From Nanobdellota archaeon (GTDB lineage: Archaea; Nanobdellota; Nanobdellia; Parvarchaeales; Parvarchaeaceae): DNA of 64,000 nt. The notes beneath the pieces are model-generated. The model saw nothing but the letters and a program-made list of their open reading frames with translations. It did no database searches and was not told where the DNA came from. The stretch spans positions 6,182 to 70,181 of the forward strand of contig JAJYZA010000003.1 in NCBI GenBank assembly GCA_021800365.1. Direction: 5' to 3'. Position numbers and translations under genes: made by a program. Numbering within the stretch: the first letter of the stretch is position 1; each line of letters begins with the position of its first letter. This document shows, piece by piece, positions 14,315 through 45,805 of the stretch.

Positions 14315-17300
14315 ATGCGATATAGCCGTAGATCACAATCCGCTTTAGAATATATAATGAGCTACAGCTGGGCCATACTAATAATAGTGATTGTTGCTGG
14401 AACGCTTTATTCTTTGGGTATTTTTACCCCGCAAAATTCTGCTGGCACGGGCATAACAGGTTTTAGCGACGTAAAGGTATTATCCGCCGTCATCTTATCT
14501 AATGAAATCGAACTGCAGATTGCGAACGAGGCACCAAATCCAATAGTAATAAATGCGATAAATGTAAGTGAAAACAATCAGTTATTTACAAACTTCAAGT
14601 GTGAATCATCAAGTCTATCTATAGGCGACAACACACTTTGTGCAGTATATGGTACATTTCCTTCCCCACGGGCGGCCACTTCAATAAATATCGGGTATAC
14701 CACGACCGGCGTGTTTGAGACCAGTTACATCTCTTCCGGTAGTGTATCTGCTAACATAGCGCCACTACTACTAAATAATCAACTGCCATCGCCCACTAAT
14801 ATTGCCTATGTCGGCAGCTGGTTCGGTACACTTACAGAAATAAACACAACATCTAACACGGTGATAGCTTCGTGGGGAAACCAGTTATGGGGACAGGGAG
14901 ATATATTTTACTCTGCGAATGGAAGTTTAGCATACATAGTCGATGGTTGGACTACAATGGGAATATACAAGACACCGGGTCTTCAACTTGTCAGAAAATA
15001 CTGGATAAATGGTTGTAATCACTACGGTACACTATCGCAGAACGGCGAATACCTGTTTAATACAGTAGATTGTGCGAATTATATAGATGTTACTAATCTC
15101 TCCGAAACAAGTAGTCTATTTGATTTTAAGACCATCACAGTCGGCAACGACCCAGAAAAAATCACGAATATTAATGGCATTTTGTACGTTTTAAATCGTG
15201 CTTCCAATTCTATATCTCTCGTCGGGGATTCGAATTTTACTAATTTTGCCACAATAAGCAACATAGGTATTTTAAATAGCGCCGAATACGACATGGCATA
15301 TGACAGTGCAAACAAAAATCTTTATATAGCAGATTATAACGTAGATAATAATAATCTTTCTATAATAAATACCACTTCAAGGAGCTATATTGGTGGCATA
15401 AACAGCATAGGGCTTAATCCGTGGTATGCAGCTCTCAGCGCGAACGGTAAATTGATGTATATCTCTGATTCTTATAGCAGCCAGGGAGGTAATTATGGTA
15501 AACTATCTATTTTAAATTTATCAAATGGCGTGGTTATTGCGAATGTAAGGACCGGCAATGAACCTATGGGGGTAGCCATAGATCCCTCAACTGGAAATAT
15601 CTGGGTATTAAATTACAACTCAAACAGCATAAGCATAATAAACCCAGTTTCCTATACTGTTACAGCTACGATAACAGGCTTTAACAATCCAGAAGACTTA
15701 ATTATAATAAACGGCTATGCGTATGTAACCAACTATGGCGGAAATACGGTATCCGTCGTATCAACGTCTACAAATTCAATAACGGCAACCATCTCCGTTG
15801 GCTCAAATCCGTTTAGAATAGCGGTTTCTCCAATTAATTCAAGCCAGGTATACGTAACAAACTACGGTTCAAACACCGTATCTGTAATAAATGCAAAAAC
15901 AAACGTCGCGACGACAATATCAAATATGCACAATTGTGCTAATCCGCAAGGCATAGCGTTTACTCCAAATGGCGAAGCAGCGTATATGGCGTGTTGGAAT
16001 AATTATGTTGAGGAAATAAACGCTACGACCAACTTATGGCAAGCGGAGATAAACAGCTTGGGAGAGATACAGGGTAGCAGTTGGACGCCGATAGCGGTTT
16101 CTCCGGACGGTAAGTATGTTTATACAGGACTACAGTATGCCCCCGGACAGATGGATGTGATAGCCACTTCGAATAACTCCATTGTCAAGCGTATAGCAAC
16201 GCCAGTCGACATGTCATATCTTTTGTTCTCTTCTGATGGGTCTATACTATATGCACTGTATTATTGGGAACAAAGCGTTAATTTAGTAGAGTACAATTCA
16301 AATTCTTTAAACATAATCGGCCAAGTCGGCTCATTTTATAGCCCATATCAGATTTCGATTTCGCCTAATAACGAATATCTTGGAGTCTCTGATGCGGCAA
16401 GTCAAGAAGCTAGTATTGTGAATATATCTTCTGGGGCAGTCTATAGTTTTTCTATGAAATGGGGAAATACATGGGGAGTTGCCTTTTCGCCAGATAGCAA
16501 ATTTGCTTATTTCTCTTCTGGTGCGTTTGTTGTCAGGCTTTCATTGTTAAATTATTCACTTAAGACCATATTTACTGGGCAGTGTGCTGGACCGCTTTCA
16601 GTAAGCCCGGATGGAAATTTTCTGTACGAGCTTTTAACTTGTGGCGGAAGCGCTTATTCTGTGCCACAAAGCGGTGTCGTAACCATATCATTAAACCCAT
16701 TTGAGGTAGTTAACTACACCTACCCAGTAGGCATGACAATAAATGGGCTCGCAACGACACCAGATGGATCTAGATTGTTGATATCTAATCACGATGGGAC
16801 CGCATTCTCTGTTATGAATACACTAACTGGCCATATAATCTATTCTACATTGGAGCCTTTTCCTCCTCAGAACTCTTGGGATGTGGTTGATAATGGAAAC
16901 ATAGCATACGTAGCAATGGAAGATTCAGACTATGGAACTCTAAACAGTAGCGGAGGAATAAGTATAATAAATATCTCTTCTGGTAGTATAATCGGGGCGA
17001 TAAATGGGATAGGAGAATATACAACCAGTCTGGCAATATCGCCCGATGGCCAAACTCTATATTCATTATCAAGATTTCCGATGGGGACTGATAACAGTTC
17101 TTATTCCGCGGAGATAAATGTAATTTCCACTGTAACGGATTCGATTACAAATCATATTAAGGTGCCTGGTTGCCCCCTTGCAATGAGGCTTATGCCAAAT
17201 GGAAACACCTTAGTATACCCTGACCCATGTTCAAATAAAGTATTTTTCTTAAGCTTACAGAACGATTCTATTTATGCTCGCATACCAGTTGCATGTGGCG

Positions 17301-26302: not shown

Positions 26303-26327
26303 GTAAACGCTACGATAAACCTCTTAT

Positions 26328-26400
26328 AGCCCCGTAGTGTAGTGGTCAAGCACGCAGGCCTTTGGAGCCTGAAACACTGGTTCAAATCCGGTCGGGGCTA
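26328..26400 (+). tRNA. tRNA-Gln(TTG), no encoded CCA
   Basis: Acceptor AGCCCCG/CGGGGCT, anticodon arm CAGGC-CTTTGGA-GCCTG, T loop TTCAAAT. Confidence 0.95.
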
Positions 26401-26459
26401 TTTTATATGGGGGATAATGTTATCTCAGAGAAATGGGACTATTTTTAAATTAGAAATCA

Positions 26460-27167
26460 TTAATTATTATAGATAAAATCATTTTTTAGAAAAGTCCTAA
26501 ATAGGTACCACCATATGCAAGGCGAATAGAGGTAGTTTTCTGTTATATAACTTTTATTTGCAAATTGTTTAAGAGAACAGTCATTTTTTCCCATATCCTT
26601 TTTAACATTACAATGTAACTGCGCTACAAATTGTTTATTTCTGGTTAGTTTACCTTTTAGATTCCTATAGCTGTAGACTATTTTCTTCTGCTTATTTAAA
26701 CCCAAATAGTATTGAGCGCCATGTCCAAAAATGTAAATTTGTCGTAAATTTTTATTTATAAACACCTCCTCGAATTCTGATTTAGAATTAATAAAATATA
26801 TTCTAAAGCAAATATTTCTCCTTAGTAAGGACCAAATTAACCAAAAAATTCCATTAAAATAAAAATGTGCTAAACTAAAAGGTGTACTTATGGCAATGAT
26901 AATCCCAACTTTCGGGTTTTTAGTTTTATGTAATTGTTTGAAATGTATAGATACATACGAAAACCCCACACCCAACAACATAAATATTGTAAATCCAACA
27001 GCTATGCCACTTAACAAAAGAACAGTGTTCATGGATTGGGTGTTATTTGTCAGAATTATAAAAGTAATTATATCTAAAATTATAGAAAATGATAATAGAG
27101 CTATTGAGAAGGTTGCAGCTAGTATAAAGCTAATTTTTACAGTAATATTGTTTTTGTCTTTAAACAT
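26460..27167 (-). CDS. 2-TM membrane protein with putative caspase/hemoglobinase-fold (clan CD) domain
   Basis: Two N-terminal hydrophobic helices; IYIFGHG (His149) and FVAQLHC (Cys186); visibly AT-richer than the flanks. Confidence 0.55.
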   Translation of the reverse strand: MFKDKNNITVKISFILAATFSIALLSFSIILDIITFIILTNNTQSMNTVLLLSGIAVGFTIFMLLGVGFSYVSIHFKQLHKTKNPKVGIIIAISTPFSLAHFYFNGIFWLIWSLLRRNICFRIYFINSKSEFEEVFINKNLRQIYIFGHGAQYYLGLNKQKKIVYSYRNLKGKLTRNKQFVAQLHCNVKKDMGKNDCSLKQFANKSYITENYLYSPCIWWYLFRTFLKNDFIYNN

Positions 27168-27214
27168 AACCTGAATAGATGCATTATAATATATAAGTAA
27201 ATATAAGTAAAATA

Positions 27215-28093
27215 TTATAAAAGTTTATTCCTTATTTTTCCCCTTAACCTGACTTCCTTCCTTTCACTTATCATTTTTCTCAGCCTGTAGTAAGTCGTTT
27301 TTGGTATTCCGAGATTCTTCGCTTCTTCAAGGCTCATGGATGTTATCTTTTCTAATAGGTTTTCATCTCTCATATAGGTCTCATATCTCACATCATCGAC
27401 TATCCCTGTCCTCTCCAGGTTACTCGCCTCCTTGCCGATGTAAATTATTTTATCGGCTATAACGTGTCTTCTTTATAAAAGACAGATGTCGCCATCAAGC
27501 TTAGATTCTAAATGGTTTATGTATTTTAAGAGAATATCACTTAAAGAACACCAATGTTCTGAGCCGTTCATCACATTACCAGTTCTGTAGTCTACAAAAT
27601 CTTTATGTGGTGCCTCTTGTGACTTTTTAGAAAATGGCGAGAGGGGTTTTATGTCTCTGTTATTGCCAAAACCGATTAGAAAGAAGTCGAACGGGATTAT
27701 ACCGCTCTTGCCGAATTTCTCGTTATATCTATCGAATCTTCTAAGTAGGCTTGGTGAAGATACCGTAAACTCAGATATAGCATAAAAGTTAGAATATTTA
27801 GAGAGAAACTCATCTAGAGTTATCTTTTCGTAGTGTAGTTTAAGTATATCTATCCATATTTCTTTTTGCCACCTTATCTCTGGGTCTCCGAACGGATTAA
27901 GAAGGTGGCCCAACCCGTACAGAGAATAGTTCTCTTTATCTTCTTTATCCTCTATTATAATTTCGCCGTTTTCTCCGAGTTGGTATAAGATGTATCTTTT
28001 AGCGCTTATGCCGTAAAACTAGATATTCTGCTCCTCTCTTTTAAGAAGTGGAATGTTTTTGTCGTATGGATTTAGGGCCTCGAAGAAGTTCAT
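27215..28093 (-). pseudogene. C-terminal remnant of a family B DNA polymerase with C-terminal HTH (casposon-like), two in-frame stops
   Basis: One frame reads MNFFEALNPY...NI*FYGISAKRYILY...YGLGHLLNPF...DGDICLL*RRHVIADKIIYIGKEASNLE...LGIPKTTYYRLRK...KLL*; stops at 28019-28021 (TAG) and 27473-27475 (TAA). Confidence 0.75.
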
Positions 28094-28176
28094 ACGTTTT
28101 AAATAAAGGATTATATCCTTCTATATTCTAATTTATTTATCTTTGAATAACTCGTATAGATAGCGTTCACGACATA

Positions 28177-29235
28177 ATGGAAGACTATGAGAAAGAGATT
28201 TGGGAAATTCTTGGCCAAAACCAGAAGAAAAAACATCCCCTGGCCAAAGAGGCCGGGACATTTTTCCTTTGCGTATTAATCGGTTTTGTAGCGGTAGGTC
28301 TTTATTTATTTTTTACTATCGGTCCACAAGGGATCTTATCCATCCTAACCGGCCTTCCTCAAAACCAATACATAGCACCGTATATTTCTCAAATAATTTC
28401 CGGAGGCCGGGCGCAGCCTACCGGGATTGGTGCCTTTGGCATTTACAACGATTCAGGTAAAATTGTGCCATATTCTGTAGAAACAAATTATATTCAAGGA
28501 AGCGCTAGCATAAATCAAATTTTCGCTTATAATCAAACTCCCCCAGAAGGCATAAGTTCTGACGGAGCCAGTCTGCAATTGAACGCCATGTTGGTCATAA
28601 CTAATTTAAATAGTTCTGAAGAGATTTTTCTAATCCAAAATGTCGTTGGTTTTGAAACTAATAGCGATGTTTTATATTATAATCCCACCGTAGTTTCATG
28701 GCGGAGCTTCACTTCATGTGGAAGTTGGCAATCAAGTACTTACACATATAATGGTAAAATAGAAAGTTTTTGTATTTTGCCGGGTAATGACATTCCGTAT
28801 ACGCTGCCGCTCTCCCTGAAGTTAGAACTCGGTCTTAGTATACAACTTGGGGTTGGTGTAACGATTTCTTACCTAATCAATGGGGCGGATTTAGGTAGCT
28901 TTCTTGTTACCGATAATGAGATTAAAAATGCAACATTCTTGACGAGTGGTTATTCGACATACAATATCGGCAATGGGTCCGTTGATCTCTATGACACCGA
29001 GCTAATATTTGGGGGAGAAGGGGATGGTGAAGCGACTTATTTTAATTCTTTGAACGCAAGCCTAAAGCTTTCGTATTTGAATTCTACTAATAATTCGTTT
29101 GTTGAATTTCCATCATTTTATAGTTTTGGAGCGGATGTCGCAGAAACGGCCGATAATCTAAACGTAACGCCAATAGGTAATGGCTATTACAAAGTGTATA
29201 ACGCTACTAGGCCAGGTTTAAGATATTTAGAGTAA
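28177..29235 (+). CDS. Thermopsin-family (peptidase A5) membrane-anchored protease
   Basis: PTGIGAFG, GASLQLNAML, IQNVVGF, ELIFGGEGDG, FYSFGADVAETADNL; N-terminal TM. Confidence 0.8.
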   Translation: MEDYEKEIWEILGQNQKKKHPLAKEAGTFFLCVLIGFVAVGLYLFFTIGPQGILSILTGLPQNQYIAPYISQIISGGRAQPTGIGAFGIYNDSGKIVPYSVETNYIQGSASINQIFAYNQTPPEGISSDGASLQLNAMLVITNLNSSEEIFLIQNVVGFETNSDVLYYNPTVVSWRSFTSCGSWQSSTYTYNGKIESFCILPGNDIPYTLPLSLKLELGLSIQLGVGVTISYLINGADLGSFLVTDNEIKNATFLTSGYSTYNIGNGSVDLYDTELIFGGEGDGEATYFNSLNASLKLSYLNSTNNSFVEFPSFYSFGADVAETADNLNVTPIGNGYYKVYNATRPGLRYLE

Positions 29236-29366
29236 AAATTCCACAAAATTAGTGCCATTTCTCCGAGATAGCACTGAAAATAGTCCAATATCTCGAGATA
29301 GCATTATCCTGCTATTCAATGATGGGCTTAGAGGATAACCAAAAACTAGATTTGTGCGCTACTAAT

Positions 29367-30290
29367 TTACTCTTCTATCTTGAATCTCTCTCTTAAATTT
29401 AGCGTGATATAAAGTTCTTTATAGCGATTTCTTATAGTTACCTCGGTTATACCAGCCGCCTTTGCTGCGTCCCTCTGTGTTTTTTTCTCTTTATTTATCA
29501 GCGTTGCAACATAAAGAACCGCTGCAGCTATGCCCATGGGGCCTTTACCACTTGTCAATCCTTTTTCTTCAGCTTCTTTAAGCAACTTTATCGAATCCGC
29601 TACGGTCTTGTTGGATACCTTTAATTCGGCAGCAAATTTATAGATATAATCATTTGGAGACGTAGGTAATATCTTTATACCGAGTTCTCTGCATAAAAGA
29701 CGATATGCTTTTCCGACTTCCTTTCTCTCTACGTTGAAGGTTTCAGAAATTTCATCCAGTGTTATCGGCCTAGAGTATTTTCTGGCAGCGGCGTAGAGTG
29801 CACCTGCGATTACGCTCTCCATAGAACGACCCCTGACAAGCCGCCTCGTTATTGCCTCACGATACATCTTGGCCGCTTCTTCTTGAACGACATTAGAAAC
29901 GTGGAGTCTATTACTGGCATGCCTTAATTCCGTAAGCGCAAATTTTAAGTTTCTTTCAAAAGCGGTCGAAATTCTAGGCTGCCACTTTCTTAATTTATAA
30001 AAAGTACGTCTGTTTGAATTTGATAGCTTTATCGATTCACTTGCTTTGCCTATAACTGTGCTGGTTCCCTTGTCATATTTGGCGTAGCTGAGCGGTGAAC
30101 CCATCCTCCCTTTTCCTTCATCTCTTTCATCTTCAAATGAGCGCCATTCTCTTCCATAATCGATCATGTCACTCTCTAATACGTATCCACAACGTTGGCA
30201 TACGGACTCACCAGTAGATTTGTCATAAATGATTGAGTTTGTACCACAGTTTGGACATTTTTGAGAAGATTTGCTTGTTATGACTTTCAT
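29367..30290 (-). CDS. tfb: Transcription initiation factor IIB (TFB)
   Basis: Zn ribbon CPNCG...CQRCG, EWRSF, GRSMES, TSGKGPMGIAAA, EVTIRNRYKEL. Confidence 0.97.
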   Translation of the reverse strand: MKVITSKSSQKCPNCGTNSIIYDKSTGESVCQRCGYVLESDMIDYGREWRSFEDERDEGKGRMGSPLSYAKYDKGTSTVIGKASESIKLSNSNRRTFYKLRKWQPRISTAFERNLKFALTELRHASNRLHVSNVVQEEAAKMYREAITRRLVRGRSMESVIAGALYAAARKYSRPITLDEISETFNVERKEVGKAYRLLCRELGIKILPTSPNDYIYKFAAELKVSNKTVADSIKLLKEAEEKGLTSGKGPMGIAAAVLYVATLINKEKKTQRDAAKAAGITEVTIRNRYKELYITLNLRERFKIEE

Positions 30291-31891: not shown

Positions 31892-33535
31892 ATGGTTGTC
31901 TCAAAGAGAGCGCAATTTATAACGGAATATCTACTAGTAATCGGTATAGCTCTTGTGATCATCGTTGCTTTCACGTTGTACATTACTTTATACTATATAA
32001 GTTATTCCAACGCTTCCAATTCTAATCAGATATATACGGCGGCAGACTCGATAATTCAAGAAGCAAATTATATCTCATCGGAAGGGGTCGGGTCAAAGAT
32101 ATCATTTCCGGTTAATTTTCCAGTGCTCAGCGCAAGCAGTTCGCTGTTTTGCGGGTCCTCTTTTAAAATAACCTCCGATGGATACTCCTCCATAACAGAG
32201 GCGAATGCCGAGATAGAGGGCGTACTGCCGCTTAATGCAGGTAACTCCGTTCTATATGCTCGTTATAACGGTAGTAATTTAGTCCAGATAGGAGTCGACA
32301 GGCCGGTGGCATTTATAACATATAATTATGCCATTTCCGGCAAATACCTCATTTATAATATTTCTTTTTACAATCTCAGTTACTATCCAGCTAAAAATAC
32401 CGGTTTTAATATTAGTGTCCTATACCAAAATGGCACCAGCATAAATAGTACTGTCGGAAGCGCAGTTTCCGGCAAAGTGAACGGTGAAATTTATGTGAAA
32501 GCATTGCCAATACCAGTAATTATCGATATATTTGTGCCACAATACTCTTTGGTTTCTCCATCTTGCTTTCCCATCGGGATAACGGCTCTAACTAATATGA
32601 CAATAAATAATTCTCAGTCCTTAGCGACCATTAGCCCATTTCAGCAGATGGTAAACCTTTCATCCTCCTTTTACAGCAGTTATGCCAATTCAGCGCTTTC
32701 AAACGTAGAGTTCTTTTACGGTAACGGCACGATAATTCCCTCATGGCTTGAGAATTATAGTGCTTCTAATGCGATTTGGTGGCTTAAATTACTACACGGT
32801 ATAGGCGCCTCCTCTTCAATCACAATCTATATTGGTTTCGCCTCAACATCGACAGATTTGTTTAATACCAATAATATCGGGGAAAACCCCCTCCTCTCGC
32901 CAGTTTATGGTGAATATGACGATGGACCAAATGTTTTTACTTTCTATGATAATTTTGCCGGCACACATTTAAGTTATAAGTGGGGCGACAACACGATAAC
33001 TCTAACAAAATCAGGAGGTACGTTGATTATCAACAACAGCATGAGTTTTGAACGAGGTTCACAAGGTAATGCTATTCCTTTTCTTAAGTCGCAAACGACT
33101 GCATTTATCCCCAGCTCAGGCGTAATAGAAGCTTATGGTACTATACCGGCAGGCGCTTCCGGTAGTAGTTATTGTTATGCTGGTTTTGGCATAACCGAGG
33201 CTGCAAATATAAATGCAAACGCGTCTGTAGTTGGTACTTTCTGCGGAACTTATGGACTATTAACTGGTAGCATTGTATCTCAAAATAAAGTAGCGGGATT
33301 GACCGGCGGAAAGTTTCTTTGGCAGATATTTATACCTTCCACTACTCCGTCGATAATATATGCGTCACAGAATTATGGGCCTAAAATTTCTTCTTCTTTA
33401 GATATGCCAAAATTACCGCAAGTCATCACTTTTTTTGATCAGAATGGTACTAATATTAATCTCGGACCATTTTACTGGGTCAGAACTCGTGCTTATCCTC
33501 CAAACGGAGTAATGCCGACAGTCACGGTCGTTTAA
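31892..33535 (+). CDS. Class III signal-peptide protein with DUF2341 domain
   Basis: KRA/QFITEYLLVIG; PFQQMVN...NGTIIPSWLE...WWLKL...IGENP..YGEYDDG; C-terminal YWVRTRAYPPNGVMP; ATG at 31892. Confidence 0.8.
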   Translation: MVVSKRAQFITEYLLVIGIALVIIVAFTLYITLYYISYSNASNSNQIYTAADSIIQEANYISSEGVGSKISFPVNFPVLSASSSLFCGSSFKITSDGYSSITEANAEIEGVLPLNAGNSVLYARYNGSNLVQIGVDRPVAFITYNYAISGKYLIYNISFYNLSYYPAKNTGFNISVLYQNGTSINSTVGSAVSGKVNGEIYVKALPIPVIIDIFVPQYSLVSPSCFPIGITALTNMTINNSQSLATISPFQQMVNLSSSFYSSYANSALSNVEFFYGNGTIIPSWLENYSASNAIWWLKLLHGIGASSSITIYIGFASTSTDLFNTNNIGENPLLSPVYGEYDDGPNVFTFYDNFAGTHLSYKWGDNTITLTKSGGTLIINNSMSFERGSQGNAIPFLKSQTTAFIPSSGVIEAYGTIPAGASGSSYCYAGFGITEAANINANASVVGTFCGTYGLLTGSIVSQNKVAGLTGGKFLWQIFIPSTTPSIIYASQNYGPKISSSLDMPKLPQVITFFDQNGTNINLGPFYWVRTRAYPPNGVMPTVTVV

Positions 33536-43501: not shown

Positions 43502-45805
43502 ATGAAAAGACATTATAGAATATCGAGGGGCCAAGTGGCTTTAGAATATTTAATAATAATCGGACTAGCATTAACGATACTTACTGGTTTTCTTATAATG
43601 ACTTTTTATTATGCGTCTGGTTATAACTCAGCCGAGAGTGGTCAGGGCGTGGTCTTAGCAGTCAATACAATAAGTAACGCGGTTGATTCATTGGCATCGG
43701 CGCAGTTAGGTTCTGCCTACGGTTTTTCGTTTGTGTCCTCGGGTTTTGATCAATTGGCTTCTTATTTCTGTGCCAATTATATAACATTGTCTTCATCCGG
43801 ATATCAGGCCGCCGCTACTGTAAATTTGCCGGTGTATGGTGAAATCCCGCTTAACCCAGGACAATATTCAGGGAGGGCGCTTTTAACCAATATAAACGGC
43901 GAGCAGGAGGTACAAATAAGTTTCAATCTCTTAATAGCAACAATAAATACGACTTATGTGTTAAACGGATCTGCATTATTATATAATATATCTTTTTTAT
44001 CCCAGTCAAATACGTTAGTAAATAACGTAAATTTTGAATTAAAAGTATATACTTTAACAAATACTTTTATTGCTGCACAAAATGAAACCGCAGTAAGTGG
44101 AAAATTCAGCGGCCATGTAAATATAAATCACGCATATCCCAACTTAAAAATAATGGTGTTAGTGCCTTCTTATGGGGTAGCTAACACAGAATGCATAGGG
44201 AGCAGTGCGCAAGCACGGCTCAGCATAATAAATTTTCAGTCTTCAGCGACTCCTTCTCCGTTTCAACAGACGGTCACTATAAATTCCTCAGAGTTTTCAA
44301 AGTACGAATCTACTAATTTGCAGAATGTGCAATTCTCTTATCCTAACGGTACAGTAATCCCGTCTTGGTTGGAATCTTCCAACCTCGCAAGTTTTAATAC
44401 GCCGCTTCAGTCACCATTCGCATGGATAAACGTAAGCAATAGCTCATTACTTAAGCCGACTAGCGCGCTTACAGTGAGTGGCTGGGCAAATTTAAGGAAT
44501 TTAAGTGACGTTGGGGGTGTCCTCCCATTGGCTTTATTTTCTAATGAGTGGGCCAATAGAACTAGCGGCATAATGGCATATATAAAAAATGGCGAATTAT
44601 ACTTCTTTGCAAATCTTTCCTCTTCAGGTCGAGTCAATATCAGCACTAACATCTCGACTCTTGGAATAACCGTAAATCAGTGGTTTAATTATGTTGCGAC
44701 TTATTCGGCTGCTACGGGTAAATTTATGCTTTATATAAATGGAGAGCCGGAAGCTACGAAAACGGTACCAACGAGTCAATCGATAGTATACGTGCCGAGT
44801 TCAAAATTTATTATTGGAGCATTCCTACCTGGAGCCGGCTGTATTTTATTGTGTTTAGATTTCATTTTTAACGGTAGCATGGCAAACTTACAGATGTATT
44901 CCTCAGCATTGGCTTCCTCTCAGATCTCTGCGCTTTATTCTGAAGGGATGGGGGGTCAGCCCGTTTCAACCGCCTCTCTTTTAGCCTGGTGGCCGCTTTC
45001 TGGAAATGCCAACGATTTGAGCGGAAATGGCAATTCGGGGATACCTATCGACGTGGTATTCTCTGCCGTTGGATCAGGCAGCACCGGCACAAGATATTGG
45101 TTAAGACTCGGAAGCCTTCCTGCAGACTCTACGACTGAAATATTGATGGACTTCTATCCAACTGATTTTAACGTTTTCAATAATAAAATAACCGGTGAAG
45201 CTCCTCAGCTTTCCTCCACATACGGCAAATATGATAACGGCGTTAATATATTCAATTACTATACTAATTTTTCTGGAACGAGTCTGCCGAGTGGATGGAC
45301 TACAAGCAGTAGCCTGACTGCCACTGTGAGTAATGGCGTAAAACTGGCCAGTTCAGCAGGGAGTCAATATTTAGGATACAATACCGCCGTAAATTCTCCT
45401 TTTGTATTCGAAATCTATGGAAAGGTAACGACAGCAACAACAGTAGATGAATCGAACCTATTGGCGATTGTCAGCAGCTCTCTTGGTGGTGCCACTGATT
45501 GGGCAGGGGAAGCATATTCTTCCGGGGATGTCTTTGGTTACGGTATAGCAGGCAATTGGATCACAACATCGACAAGCTGGAGCATAGGTACTTTTTACCT
45601 GAACGGAGTGGGATTGACGTCTTCGGGGGTTTCCGATTATGTCAATTACAATTTATTAGGCAGTTCCACATCTTCTGGCGGATTATCGAGTGCATATTTA
45701 GAAATATGGCAGGACAATTCAACGACATTCGTCCAGTGGCTCCGCACCCGGGCTTATCCTCCAAACGGTGTAATGCCATATGTTATAGTTGGTGGAGTAC
45801 AGTGA
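43502..45805 (+). CDS. Class III signal-peptide protein with DUF2341 interrupted by a LamG/concanavalin-like domain
   Basis: SRG/QVALEYLIIIG; LTVSGW...WFNYVATY..LYING...FNGSMANLQMYSSAL...WWPLSGNAND; WLRTRAYPPNGVMP. Confidence 0.82.
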   Translation: MKRHYRISRGQVALEYLIIIGLALTILTGFLIMTFYYASGYNSAESGQGVVLAVNTISNAVDSLASAQLGSAYGFSFVSSGFDQLASYFCANYITLSSSGYQAAATVNLPVYGEIPLNPGQYSGRALLTNINGEQEVQISFNLLIATINTTYVLNGSALLYNISFLSQSNTLVNNVNFELKVYTLTNTFIAAQNETAVSGKFSGHVNINHAYPNLKIMVLVPSYGVANTECIGSSAQARLSIINFQSSATPSPFQQTVTINSSEFSKYESTNLQNVQFSYPNGTVIPSWLESSNLASFNTPLQSPFAWINVSNSSLLKPTSALTVSGWANLRNLSDVGGVLPLALFSNEWANRTSGIMAYIKNGELYFFANLSSSGRVNISTNISTLGITVNQWFNYVATYSAATGKFMLYINGEPEATKTVPTSQSIVYVPSSKFIIGAFLPGAGCILLCLDFIFNGSMANLQMYSSALASSQISALYSEGMGGQPVSTASLLAWWPLSGNANDLSGNGNSGIPIDVVFSAVGSGSTGTRYWLRLGSLPADSTTEILMDFYPTDFNVFNNKITGEAPQLSSTYGKYDNGVNIFNYYTNFSGTSLPSGWTTSSSLTATVSNGVKLASSAGSQYLGYNTAVNSPFVFEIYGKVTTATTVDESNLLAIVSSSLGGATDWAGEAYSSGDVFGYGIAGNWITTSTSWSIGTFYLNGVGLTSSGVSDYVNYNLLGSSTSSGGLSSAYLEIWQDNSTTFVQWLRTRAYPPNGVMPYVIVGGVQ

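Follow-up and report, generated by a model that had tools for sequence, protein, structure and literature searches.

A probable Cas1-less casposon derivative at the 3′ end of a tRNA-Gln gene in a small DPANN-type archaeal genome

Casposons are self-replicating transposons driven by Cas1, and the present analysis concerns a 2.9-kb element, very probably derived from one of them, that lies at the 3′ end of a tRNA-Gln(TTG) gene. The stretch of DNA analysed (G000:C13:6182-70181, 64 kb, hereafter the window) belongs to the genome of a DPANN-type archaeon of about 0.9 Mb (G000: 898 kb in 30 contigs, 98.4% complete, GC content 39.1%). A preliminary description of the locus gave as its gene order tRNA-Gln, an AT-rich membrane gene, a broken fragment of family B DNA polymerase (PolB) with a helix-turn-helix (HTH), a thermopsin and tfb, an arrangement borne out by ARAGORN and by the open reading frame (ORF) and Pfam results. 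The features of the locus, including its terminal inverted repeats (TIRs) and target-site duplication (TSD), are the following:

26327-26401, plus strand: tRNA-Gln(TTG), the integration target (ARAGORN); its last 5 nt belong to the duplicated target
26397-26411, no strand: left TSD GCTATTTTATATGGG, read from the sequence; it begins in the last 5 nt of the tRNA
26412-26446, plus strand: left TIR, matching the TIR of the intact casposon L078 and that of the contig end L064
26460-27167, minus strand: ORF of 235 aa for a membrane protein, putatively caspase-like; apparently intact, GC 27.8%
27215-28120, minus strand: PolB pseudogene fragment with its native C-terminal HTH; homology begins near 28105
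28106-28176, no strand: putative deletion junction where the truncated PolB meets the beginning of the thermopsin gene, at the limit of PolB homology
28177-29235, plus strand: thermopsin-family (peptidase A5) gene, 352 aa, PF05317; intact, single copy
29245-29276, minus strand: inner, extra copy of the right-end TIR, tip-truncated, 25/29 identical to the left TIR
29277-29309, minus strand: outer right TIR, 30/34 identical to the left TIR, with one 1-nt gap
29311-29326, no strand: right TSD GCTATTCAATGATGGG, matching the left copy in 13/16 aligned columns
29327-29366, no strand: 40-nt residue of an old flank, ending at a putative inversion breakpoint directly after the tfb stop codon (from comparison with relatives)
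29367-30290, minus strand: tfb, where housekeeping genes resume

The element (26412-29309) is enclosed by 34-nt TIRs, identical at 30 of 34 positions with one gap, which are flanked in turn by a degenerate direct repeat. Both features had escaped the preliminary description, in which neither terminal inverted repeats nor an attR copy of the tRNA 3′ end were reported. In particular, the 15-nt core of the TIR, GGATAATGCTATCTC, searched with up to 2 mismatches, occurs at exactly 2 sites in the 64 kb, versus 0.18 expected, and only 3 of 100 shuffled sequences reached 2 matches. L078, a Cas1-bearing casposon of the same genus, has the same TIR. The flanking TSD, expected to measure about 14-16 nt in casposons, is here present in degenerate copies of 15-16 nt. 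Moreover, the left TIR begins 10-11 nt past the end of the tRNA, and the same geometry is found at 7 other tRNA-Gln(TTG) and 4 tRNA-Gln(CTG) loci of the genus; L078 and L045 have perfect TSDs in that position, of 15 nt and 13-14 nt. At the right end, the inner TIR copy lacks the tip and begins 9 nt past the thermopsin stop codon.

The interior of the element carries the C-terminal third of a PolB, in one minus-strand frame from 28120 to 27215 that is broken only by a TAG (28019-28021) and a TAA (27473-27475). This fragment is identified solely through its homology to full-length relatives, as Pfam and PHROGs are blind to it: neither gave a match for the PolB fragment, its HTH piece or the membrane ORF, even at E ≤ 10 or E ≤ 1. 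An exhaustive profile search with the fragment retrieved 287 library proteins at E ≤ 0.001, and its full-length matches (830-950 aa) align at their residues ~600-800. Fifteen full-length relatives, when aligned, show Exo I-III, motifs A and B, YCDTDS and KRY. Specifically, the fragment corresponds to residues ~579-877 of full-length casposon PolBs of 865-902 aa. It starts shortly past motif C and covers the thumb region with the KxY motif, ending in the native C-terminal HTH; some 580 N-terminal codons have been lost, with Exo I-III and motifs A, B and C deleted. It is 52-55% identical over ~290 residues to the PolBs of L078 and L064, the latter being the closest full-length PolB, on a contig that ends in the same TIR as the window element. 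Another relative, 54% identical, lies on a 14.9-kb metagenomic contig carrying Cas1. Relatives are also found in Cas1-carrying elements of the same genus, namely L009 (genome G010), L010 (G015) and L078 (G043), and the PolBs of Methanosarcina, Methanococcoides and Aciduliprofundum are 40-46% identical to the PolB family of the window fragment.

The HTH of the fragment resembles the C-terminal HTH of the L078 casposase (35% identity over 52 aa, E 2e-6), and such a resemblance between the HTHs of PolB and casposase is a trait of family 2 casposons (PMC9939771). PolBs with a CDTDS motif, in addition, form a casposon-borne group (PMC7544198). Of the combination of a CDTDS-type PolB and a casposase-like HTH seen in family 2, the window itself shows the HTH; the YCDTDS is read in the full-length relatives, motif C being deleted in the fragment.

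An intact element with which the locus can be compared is that of L078, a 10.4-kb casposon whose order is tRNA-Arg, a perfect 15-nt TSD, the same TIR as in the window element, Cas1 (PF01867, E 6e-52; casposase at L078:6378-7607), an 865-aa PolB, TIR, TSD and a second, tandem TIR. Its small ORFs gave no Pfam match at E ≤ 0.001, no dedicated search for HNH having been made. The statement in the preliminary description that integrase and casposase are lacking stands: no Cas1 or integrase is present in the window or in the whole genome, where neither the ORFs of the island nor the remaining contigs match PF01867 and no second PolB was found. As for the polymerase expected of a casposon to be intact, the locus retains the fragment with its two in-frame stops. 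Across the genus, intact Cas1 occurs in 3-4 of 33 genomes, and fragments of it in 4 more.

Comparison with related genomes shows that the upstream gene order is conserved (tRNA-Thr, a 589-aa ORF, a 156-aa ORF, GT4, tRNA-Gln), with the GT4-tRNA-Gln synteny kept in 14 of 17 relatives' loci. Downstream of tRNA-Gln(TTG), homologues of the membrane, PolB and thermopsin genes are missing in all 17 relatives. No near-identical copy of the window element was found in 32 same-genus genomes. The tRNA genes themselves are frequently occupied: among 18 tRNA-Gln(TTG) loci, the window included, 8 have the TIR core 9-13 nt past the tRNA, a further 5 have a variant TIR as judged by eye, 2 retain a degenerate trace and 3 are without any. 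tRNA-Gln(CTG) is also targeted (L011, L050, L052, L055 and G000:C24). At one of these loci, L011, there is a relic independent of that in the window; it has a homologue of the membrane gene and a C-terminal piece of PolB whose truncation falls at another point. Composition was ranked against 548 long ORFs of G000 for GC, GC at third codon positions (GC3) and codon use. The compositional shift considered in the preliminary description is real for the membrane gene, whose GC content of 27.8% falls in the lowest percentile; it does not extend to the PolB fragment (36.9%) and the thermopsin (39.5%), both of them host-like. The vertical synteny in all relatives, together with uniform composition, that would speak for native genes is therefore not the pattern observed, as the genes are non-syntenic and one of them is shifted.

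The right edge of the element has a history of its own. In 4 relatives another gene starts 4-6 nt past the tfb stop codon, and the homology of the window stops exactly at that codon. The genes that lie downstream of tfb in the relatives map to G000:C15:150162-159188, and those downstream of tRNA-Gln to G000:C15:160275-174485; in G018, tfb and tRNA-Gln are 45 kb apart in the same orientation. Such a pattern in the sequence is the signature of an inversion, one breakpoint of which would fall within 29327-29366, at most 57 nt from the right TIR. The reciprocal junction, on contig C15 (159189-160275), joins the relatives' tfb-downstream block to the tRNA-Gln-downstream block. A casposon relic was sought at this junction, and no TIR-like sequence above background was detected. 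Likewise, the right flank (29310-29366) was considered as the ancestral downstream flank of the relatives' tRNA-Gln, i.e., as an 'empty site', and rejected, with 20-84% of random windows scoring equally well or better. Because the inversion broke the right flank, a true empty site could not be reconstructed. In sequence, the right TSD is like the tRNA-Gln target and unlike what flanks tfb in the relatives; therefore, everything up to 29326 sat at the tRNA-Gln site before the inversion.

Taken together, these findings make it very probable that a family 2-like casposon, integrated at the 3′ end of tRNA-Gln(TTG), gave rise to 26412-29309 by loss of cas1 and internal deletion. With neither cas1 nor an intact polB, the locus is, strictly, a casposon-derived element and not a casposon, and as a transposon relic of a tiny archaeal genome it is well defined but fairly ordinary. 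The preliminary description had seen in the locus the relic of a self-synthesising element that left a cargo gene behind, and this is supported by the PolB homology to Cas1-bearing elements, the shared TIR, the TSD and the non-synteny, with the thermopsin as the presumptive cargo. Several observations weigh against this interpretation. Without cas1 and an intact polB the element is no casposon in the functional sense, and the empty site could not be reconstructed. The TSD is short and imperfect (2 substitutions and 1 indel), and the spare inner TIR copy indicates a history more complex than one insertion and one deletion. Finally, the thermopsin is host-like in GC, GC3 and codon use, and no thermopsin was found in 67 casposon-PolB loci fetched with 10-kb flanks.

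A possible course of events can be outlined. By analogy with characterised casposases, the casposase of the ancestral element, a Cas1 homologue, would have recognised the tRNA's 3′ region and joined the TIR ends across a staggered cut of ~15 nt, and fill-in repair would have yielded the flanking TSD. A second element may also have inserted in tandem. One or more deletions would then have taken away cas1, the accessory genes and the part of polB up to and including motif C, with its exonuclease and palm domains, and would have collapsed the tandem copy to the spare TIR, after which two nonsense mutations would have struck the polB remnant, and an inversion adjoining the right end would have been the last step. 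What remains are two apparently intact genes, for a membrane-anchored protein with a putative caspase fold and for a secreted or anchored, predicted thermopsin-type acid protease, between ends that look functional. As the genome is devoid of a casposase, the element cannot move on its own.

The closest known systems are the family 2 casposons of Aciduliprofundum boonei, Methanosarcina and Methanococcoides (Krupovic et al. 2014, PMC4046053; 2016, PMC4779613). The window element resembles them in its TIRs, in a TSD of 14-16 nt, in integration at a tRNA 3′ end and in a CDTDS-type PolB with a casposase-like C-terminal HTH, the CDTDS being read in its full-length relatives. Tandem insertions that share a TSD and copies with internal stop codons in PolB are further points of likeness, and in Methanosarcina both are documented together with remnants and solo TIRs (PMC4779613). 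In contrast, the window element is without cas1 and the PolB catalytic core, no HNH was noted in it, though no search dedicated to HNH was made, its host is a DPANN-type archaeon of ~0.9 Mb and its target is tRNA-Gln. The remnants and solo TIRs of Methanosarcina mazei and the inactive casposons of Methanococcoides burtonii (PMC4779613) are comparable as decay products at a preferred target with fragmented core genes; however, the M. burtonii copies have no TIRs and TSDs, whereas the window element keeps both ends and the TSD, and it differs from both groups of remnants in that two non-core genes are intact in its 2.9-kb interior. Artificial mini-casposons, studied in vitro and in E. coli (Beguin et al. 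2016, PMC5137440), share with it the arrangement of a TIR-flanked cargo without cas1, and they are integrated by a casposase acting in trans at the tRNA 3′ end, often in tandem. These are laboratory constructs, whereas the window element and the 2.0-kb element described below are natural and known from sequence alone.

The membrane gene has homologues inside casposon L013 and in the relic L011. The predicted model of its product consists of two long N-terminal transmembrane helices and a C-terminal alpha/beta domain, with a mean pLDDT of 67. The best structural matches of this modelled domain are SAVED-CHAT (Z 9.7), CED-3 (8.5) and caspases, legumain and Csx29 (~8), and GHG and LHCN motifs are invariant in 4 homologues; a Foldseek search of the PDB with the protein returned nothing at E ≤ 0.001. 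The C-terminal domain may thus have a caspase-like (clan CD) fold, to which the model fits modestly. As a side observation, the closest database homologue (42% identity; L158:10001-10687, DAHVLY010000001.1) is flanked by a type I restriction-modification operon and GmrSD/SocA-like genes, that is, by a defence-island context.

The second intact gene matches PF05317 over the whole domain (profile positions 13-256 of 256; E 1.5e-37; 129.9 bits against a cut-off of 25). Its product carries an N-terminal transmembrane anchor. For family A5 we know of no established catalytic residues. The full-length Pfam match and the N-terminal hydrophobic anchor or signal liken it to the thermopsin of Sulfolobus acidocaldarius; it differs in being placed within transposon ends and in being 34-37% identical to its nearest named homologues (Metallosphaera and Thermoprotei metagenome-assembled genomes), so that no donor can be named. 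The gene likely arrived as cargo, judging only from its position inside the TIRs, including both copies at the right end, and its cargo status is uncertain because of the host-like composition. A possibility, though a rather doubtful one, is that recombination or deletion, involving elements in tandem or close by, brought a host gene between casposon ends. Its composition and its absence from the fetched casposon loci would agree with this, as would the rearranged state of the locus, where an extra TIR copy is present and an inversion broke the sequence 57 nt away, and the distant paralogues on the chromosomes of relatives, away from TIRs (none was found when TIRs were looked for near these paralogues). 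However, it is the tRNA-Gln target that the right TSD resembles, not the relatives' tfb flank, and the gene is placed inside a TIR copy at a distance of 9 nt. Moreover, no host orthologue is known: a 1.2-kb contig has a sequence 98% identical to it, and everything else reaches only 34-38%. Another arrangement was rejected, in which the thermopsin would form a mini-casposon whose left TIR lay where PolB and thermopsin meet (28086-28180): the best TIR alignment there scored 19, when the genome background averages 18 and has its 95th percentile at 23.

A different question is whether casposon-derived elements of this genus are still moved in trans. Two relatives carry a Cas1-less, TIR-bounded element of 2,021 bp (L045:5140-7160 in G024:C18 and L054:8096-10116 in G042:C25), with the same TIR family as the window element and a 13-14-nt TSD, which encodes a 385-aa YVTN-type beta-propeller protein and a 76-aa ORF. 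The two copies are 98% identical in nucleotide sequence between two species and lie at the same tRNA-Gln(TTG) in opposite orientations. The GT4 proteins of G024 and G042 are only 57-65% identical to that of the window. G042 (98% complete) is without Cas1, and G024 has only a Cas1 fragment. The 2,021-bp element is therefore a candidate natural non-autonomous casposon, and the sequences of the pair argue that end-bounded casposon derivatives may have moved in trans recently. It could be proposed, tentatively and with the odds against it, that the genus harbours natural non-autonomous casposons which ferry single genes for surface or secreted proteins between species into tRNA-Gln, the window element being one such cassette and not inert debris. 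In that case, the window element would be carrying the membrane caspase-like protein and the thermopsin, and the 2.0-kb element the beta-propeller protein. The open-access text searched yielded no account of natural non-autonomous casposons, nor any of casposons in these lineages.

For the window element in particular, it is unlikely that we are dealing with a non-autonomous casposon, comparable to Ds in the Ac/Ds pair, rather than with a dead relic, i.e., with functional ends that a casposase could mobilise in trans, spreading the protease as cargo. The element has kept both TIRs, tips included, and the TSD, and the 2,021-bp element with its near-identical copies in genomes devoid of an intact Cas1 offers a parallel; on the other hand, it is single-copy, with no close counterpart in the same genus, its TIRs and TSD have diverged, it has a decaying polB remnant aboard and its genome encodes no casposase. 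That the locus is instead the remnant of some other mobile element, such as a provirus or integrative plasmid with protein-primed PolB or tyrosine integrase and attL/attR in the tRNA, is extremely improbable, for while tRNA 3′ ends are classic integrase targets and the PolB of one relative also weakly matches PF03175 (organellar/viral PolB), the searches turned up neither an integrase nor a virion gene, Cas1-bearing elements have inverted repeats identical to those at its ends, and only ~5 nt of the tRNA are duplicated, with no long att core.

Other traces of casposons were observed in the same genome and genus. In G000, a tRNA-Ser(CGA) with a TIR has a Cas1 C-terminal (HTH) fragment 1.2 kb away (C28:26319-27681), a tRNA-Gln(CTG) is followed by a TIR relic (C24:11103-11205), and a perfect TIR core adjoins a fragment of a 796-aa casposon protein (C9:1676-2479). 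A second casposon lineage is present in the genus, at tRNA-Arg(TCT) and tRNA-Ser(CGA) (L009:977-16272 in G010:C9, and L010/L013 in G015:C8); its TIRs are much longer (159 nt at 89%, and at least 128 nt at 100%), and its PolB shares only ~34% identity with the fragment in the window. In addition, DUF2341-type surface proteins form a large paralogous family scattered over the genome, for example at G000:C3:30758-31924 and, in the window, at 14315-14950, 32570-32956 and 44219-45370. The copy on C3 is 89% identical to a gene within the G015 casposon, which suggests that casposons may have exchanged surface-protein genes of this type.

Casposons are transposons thought to have given rise to CRISPR adaptation, and the present findings extend their host range to an ultra-small DPANN-type lineage of acid habitats. 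In this genus the tRNA-Gln 3′ end appears as a long-lived landing pad, as a TIR is found there in most genomes examined and an intact casposase in few. Furthermore, the decay of a casposon can leave behind end-bounded cassettes that hold intact non-core genes. This would represent a plausible route by which strongly reduced genomes may gain extracellular proteases, adhesin-like proteins or defence genes, and the near-identical 2.0-kb elements of two species provide natural substrates on which the trans-mobilisation by casposases could be tested.

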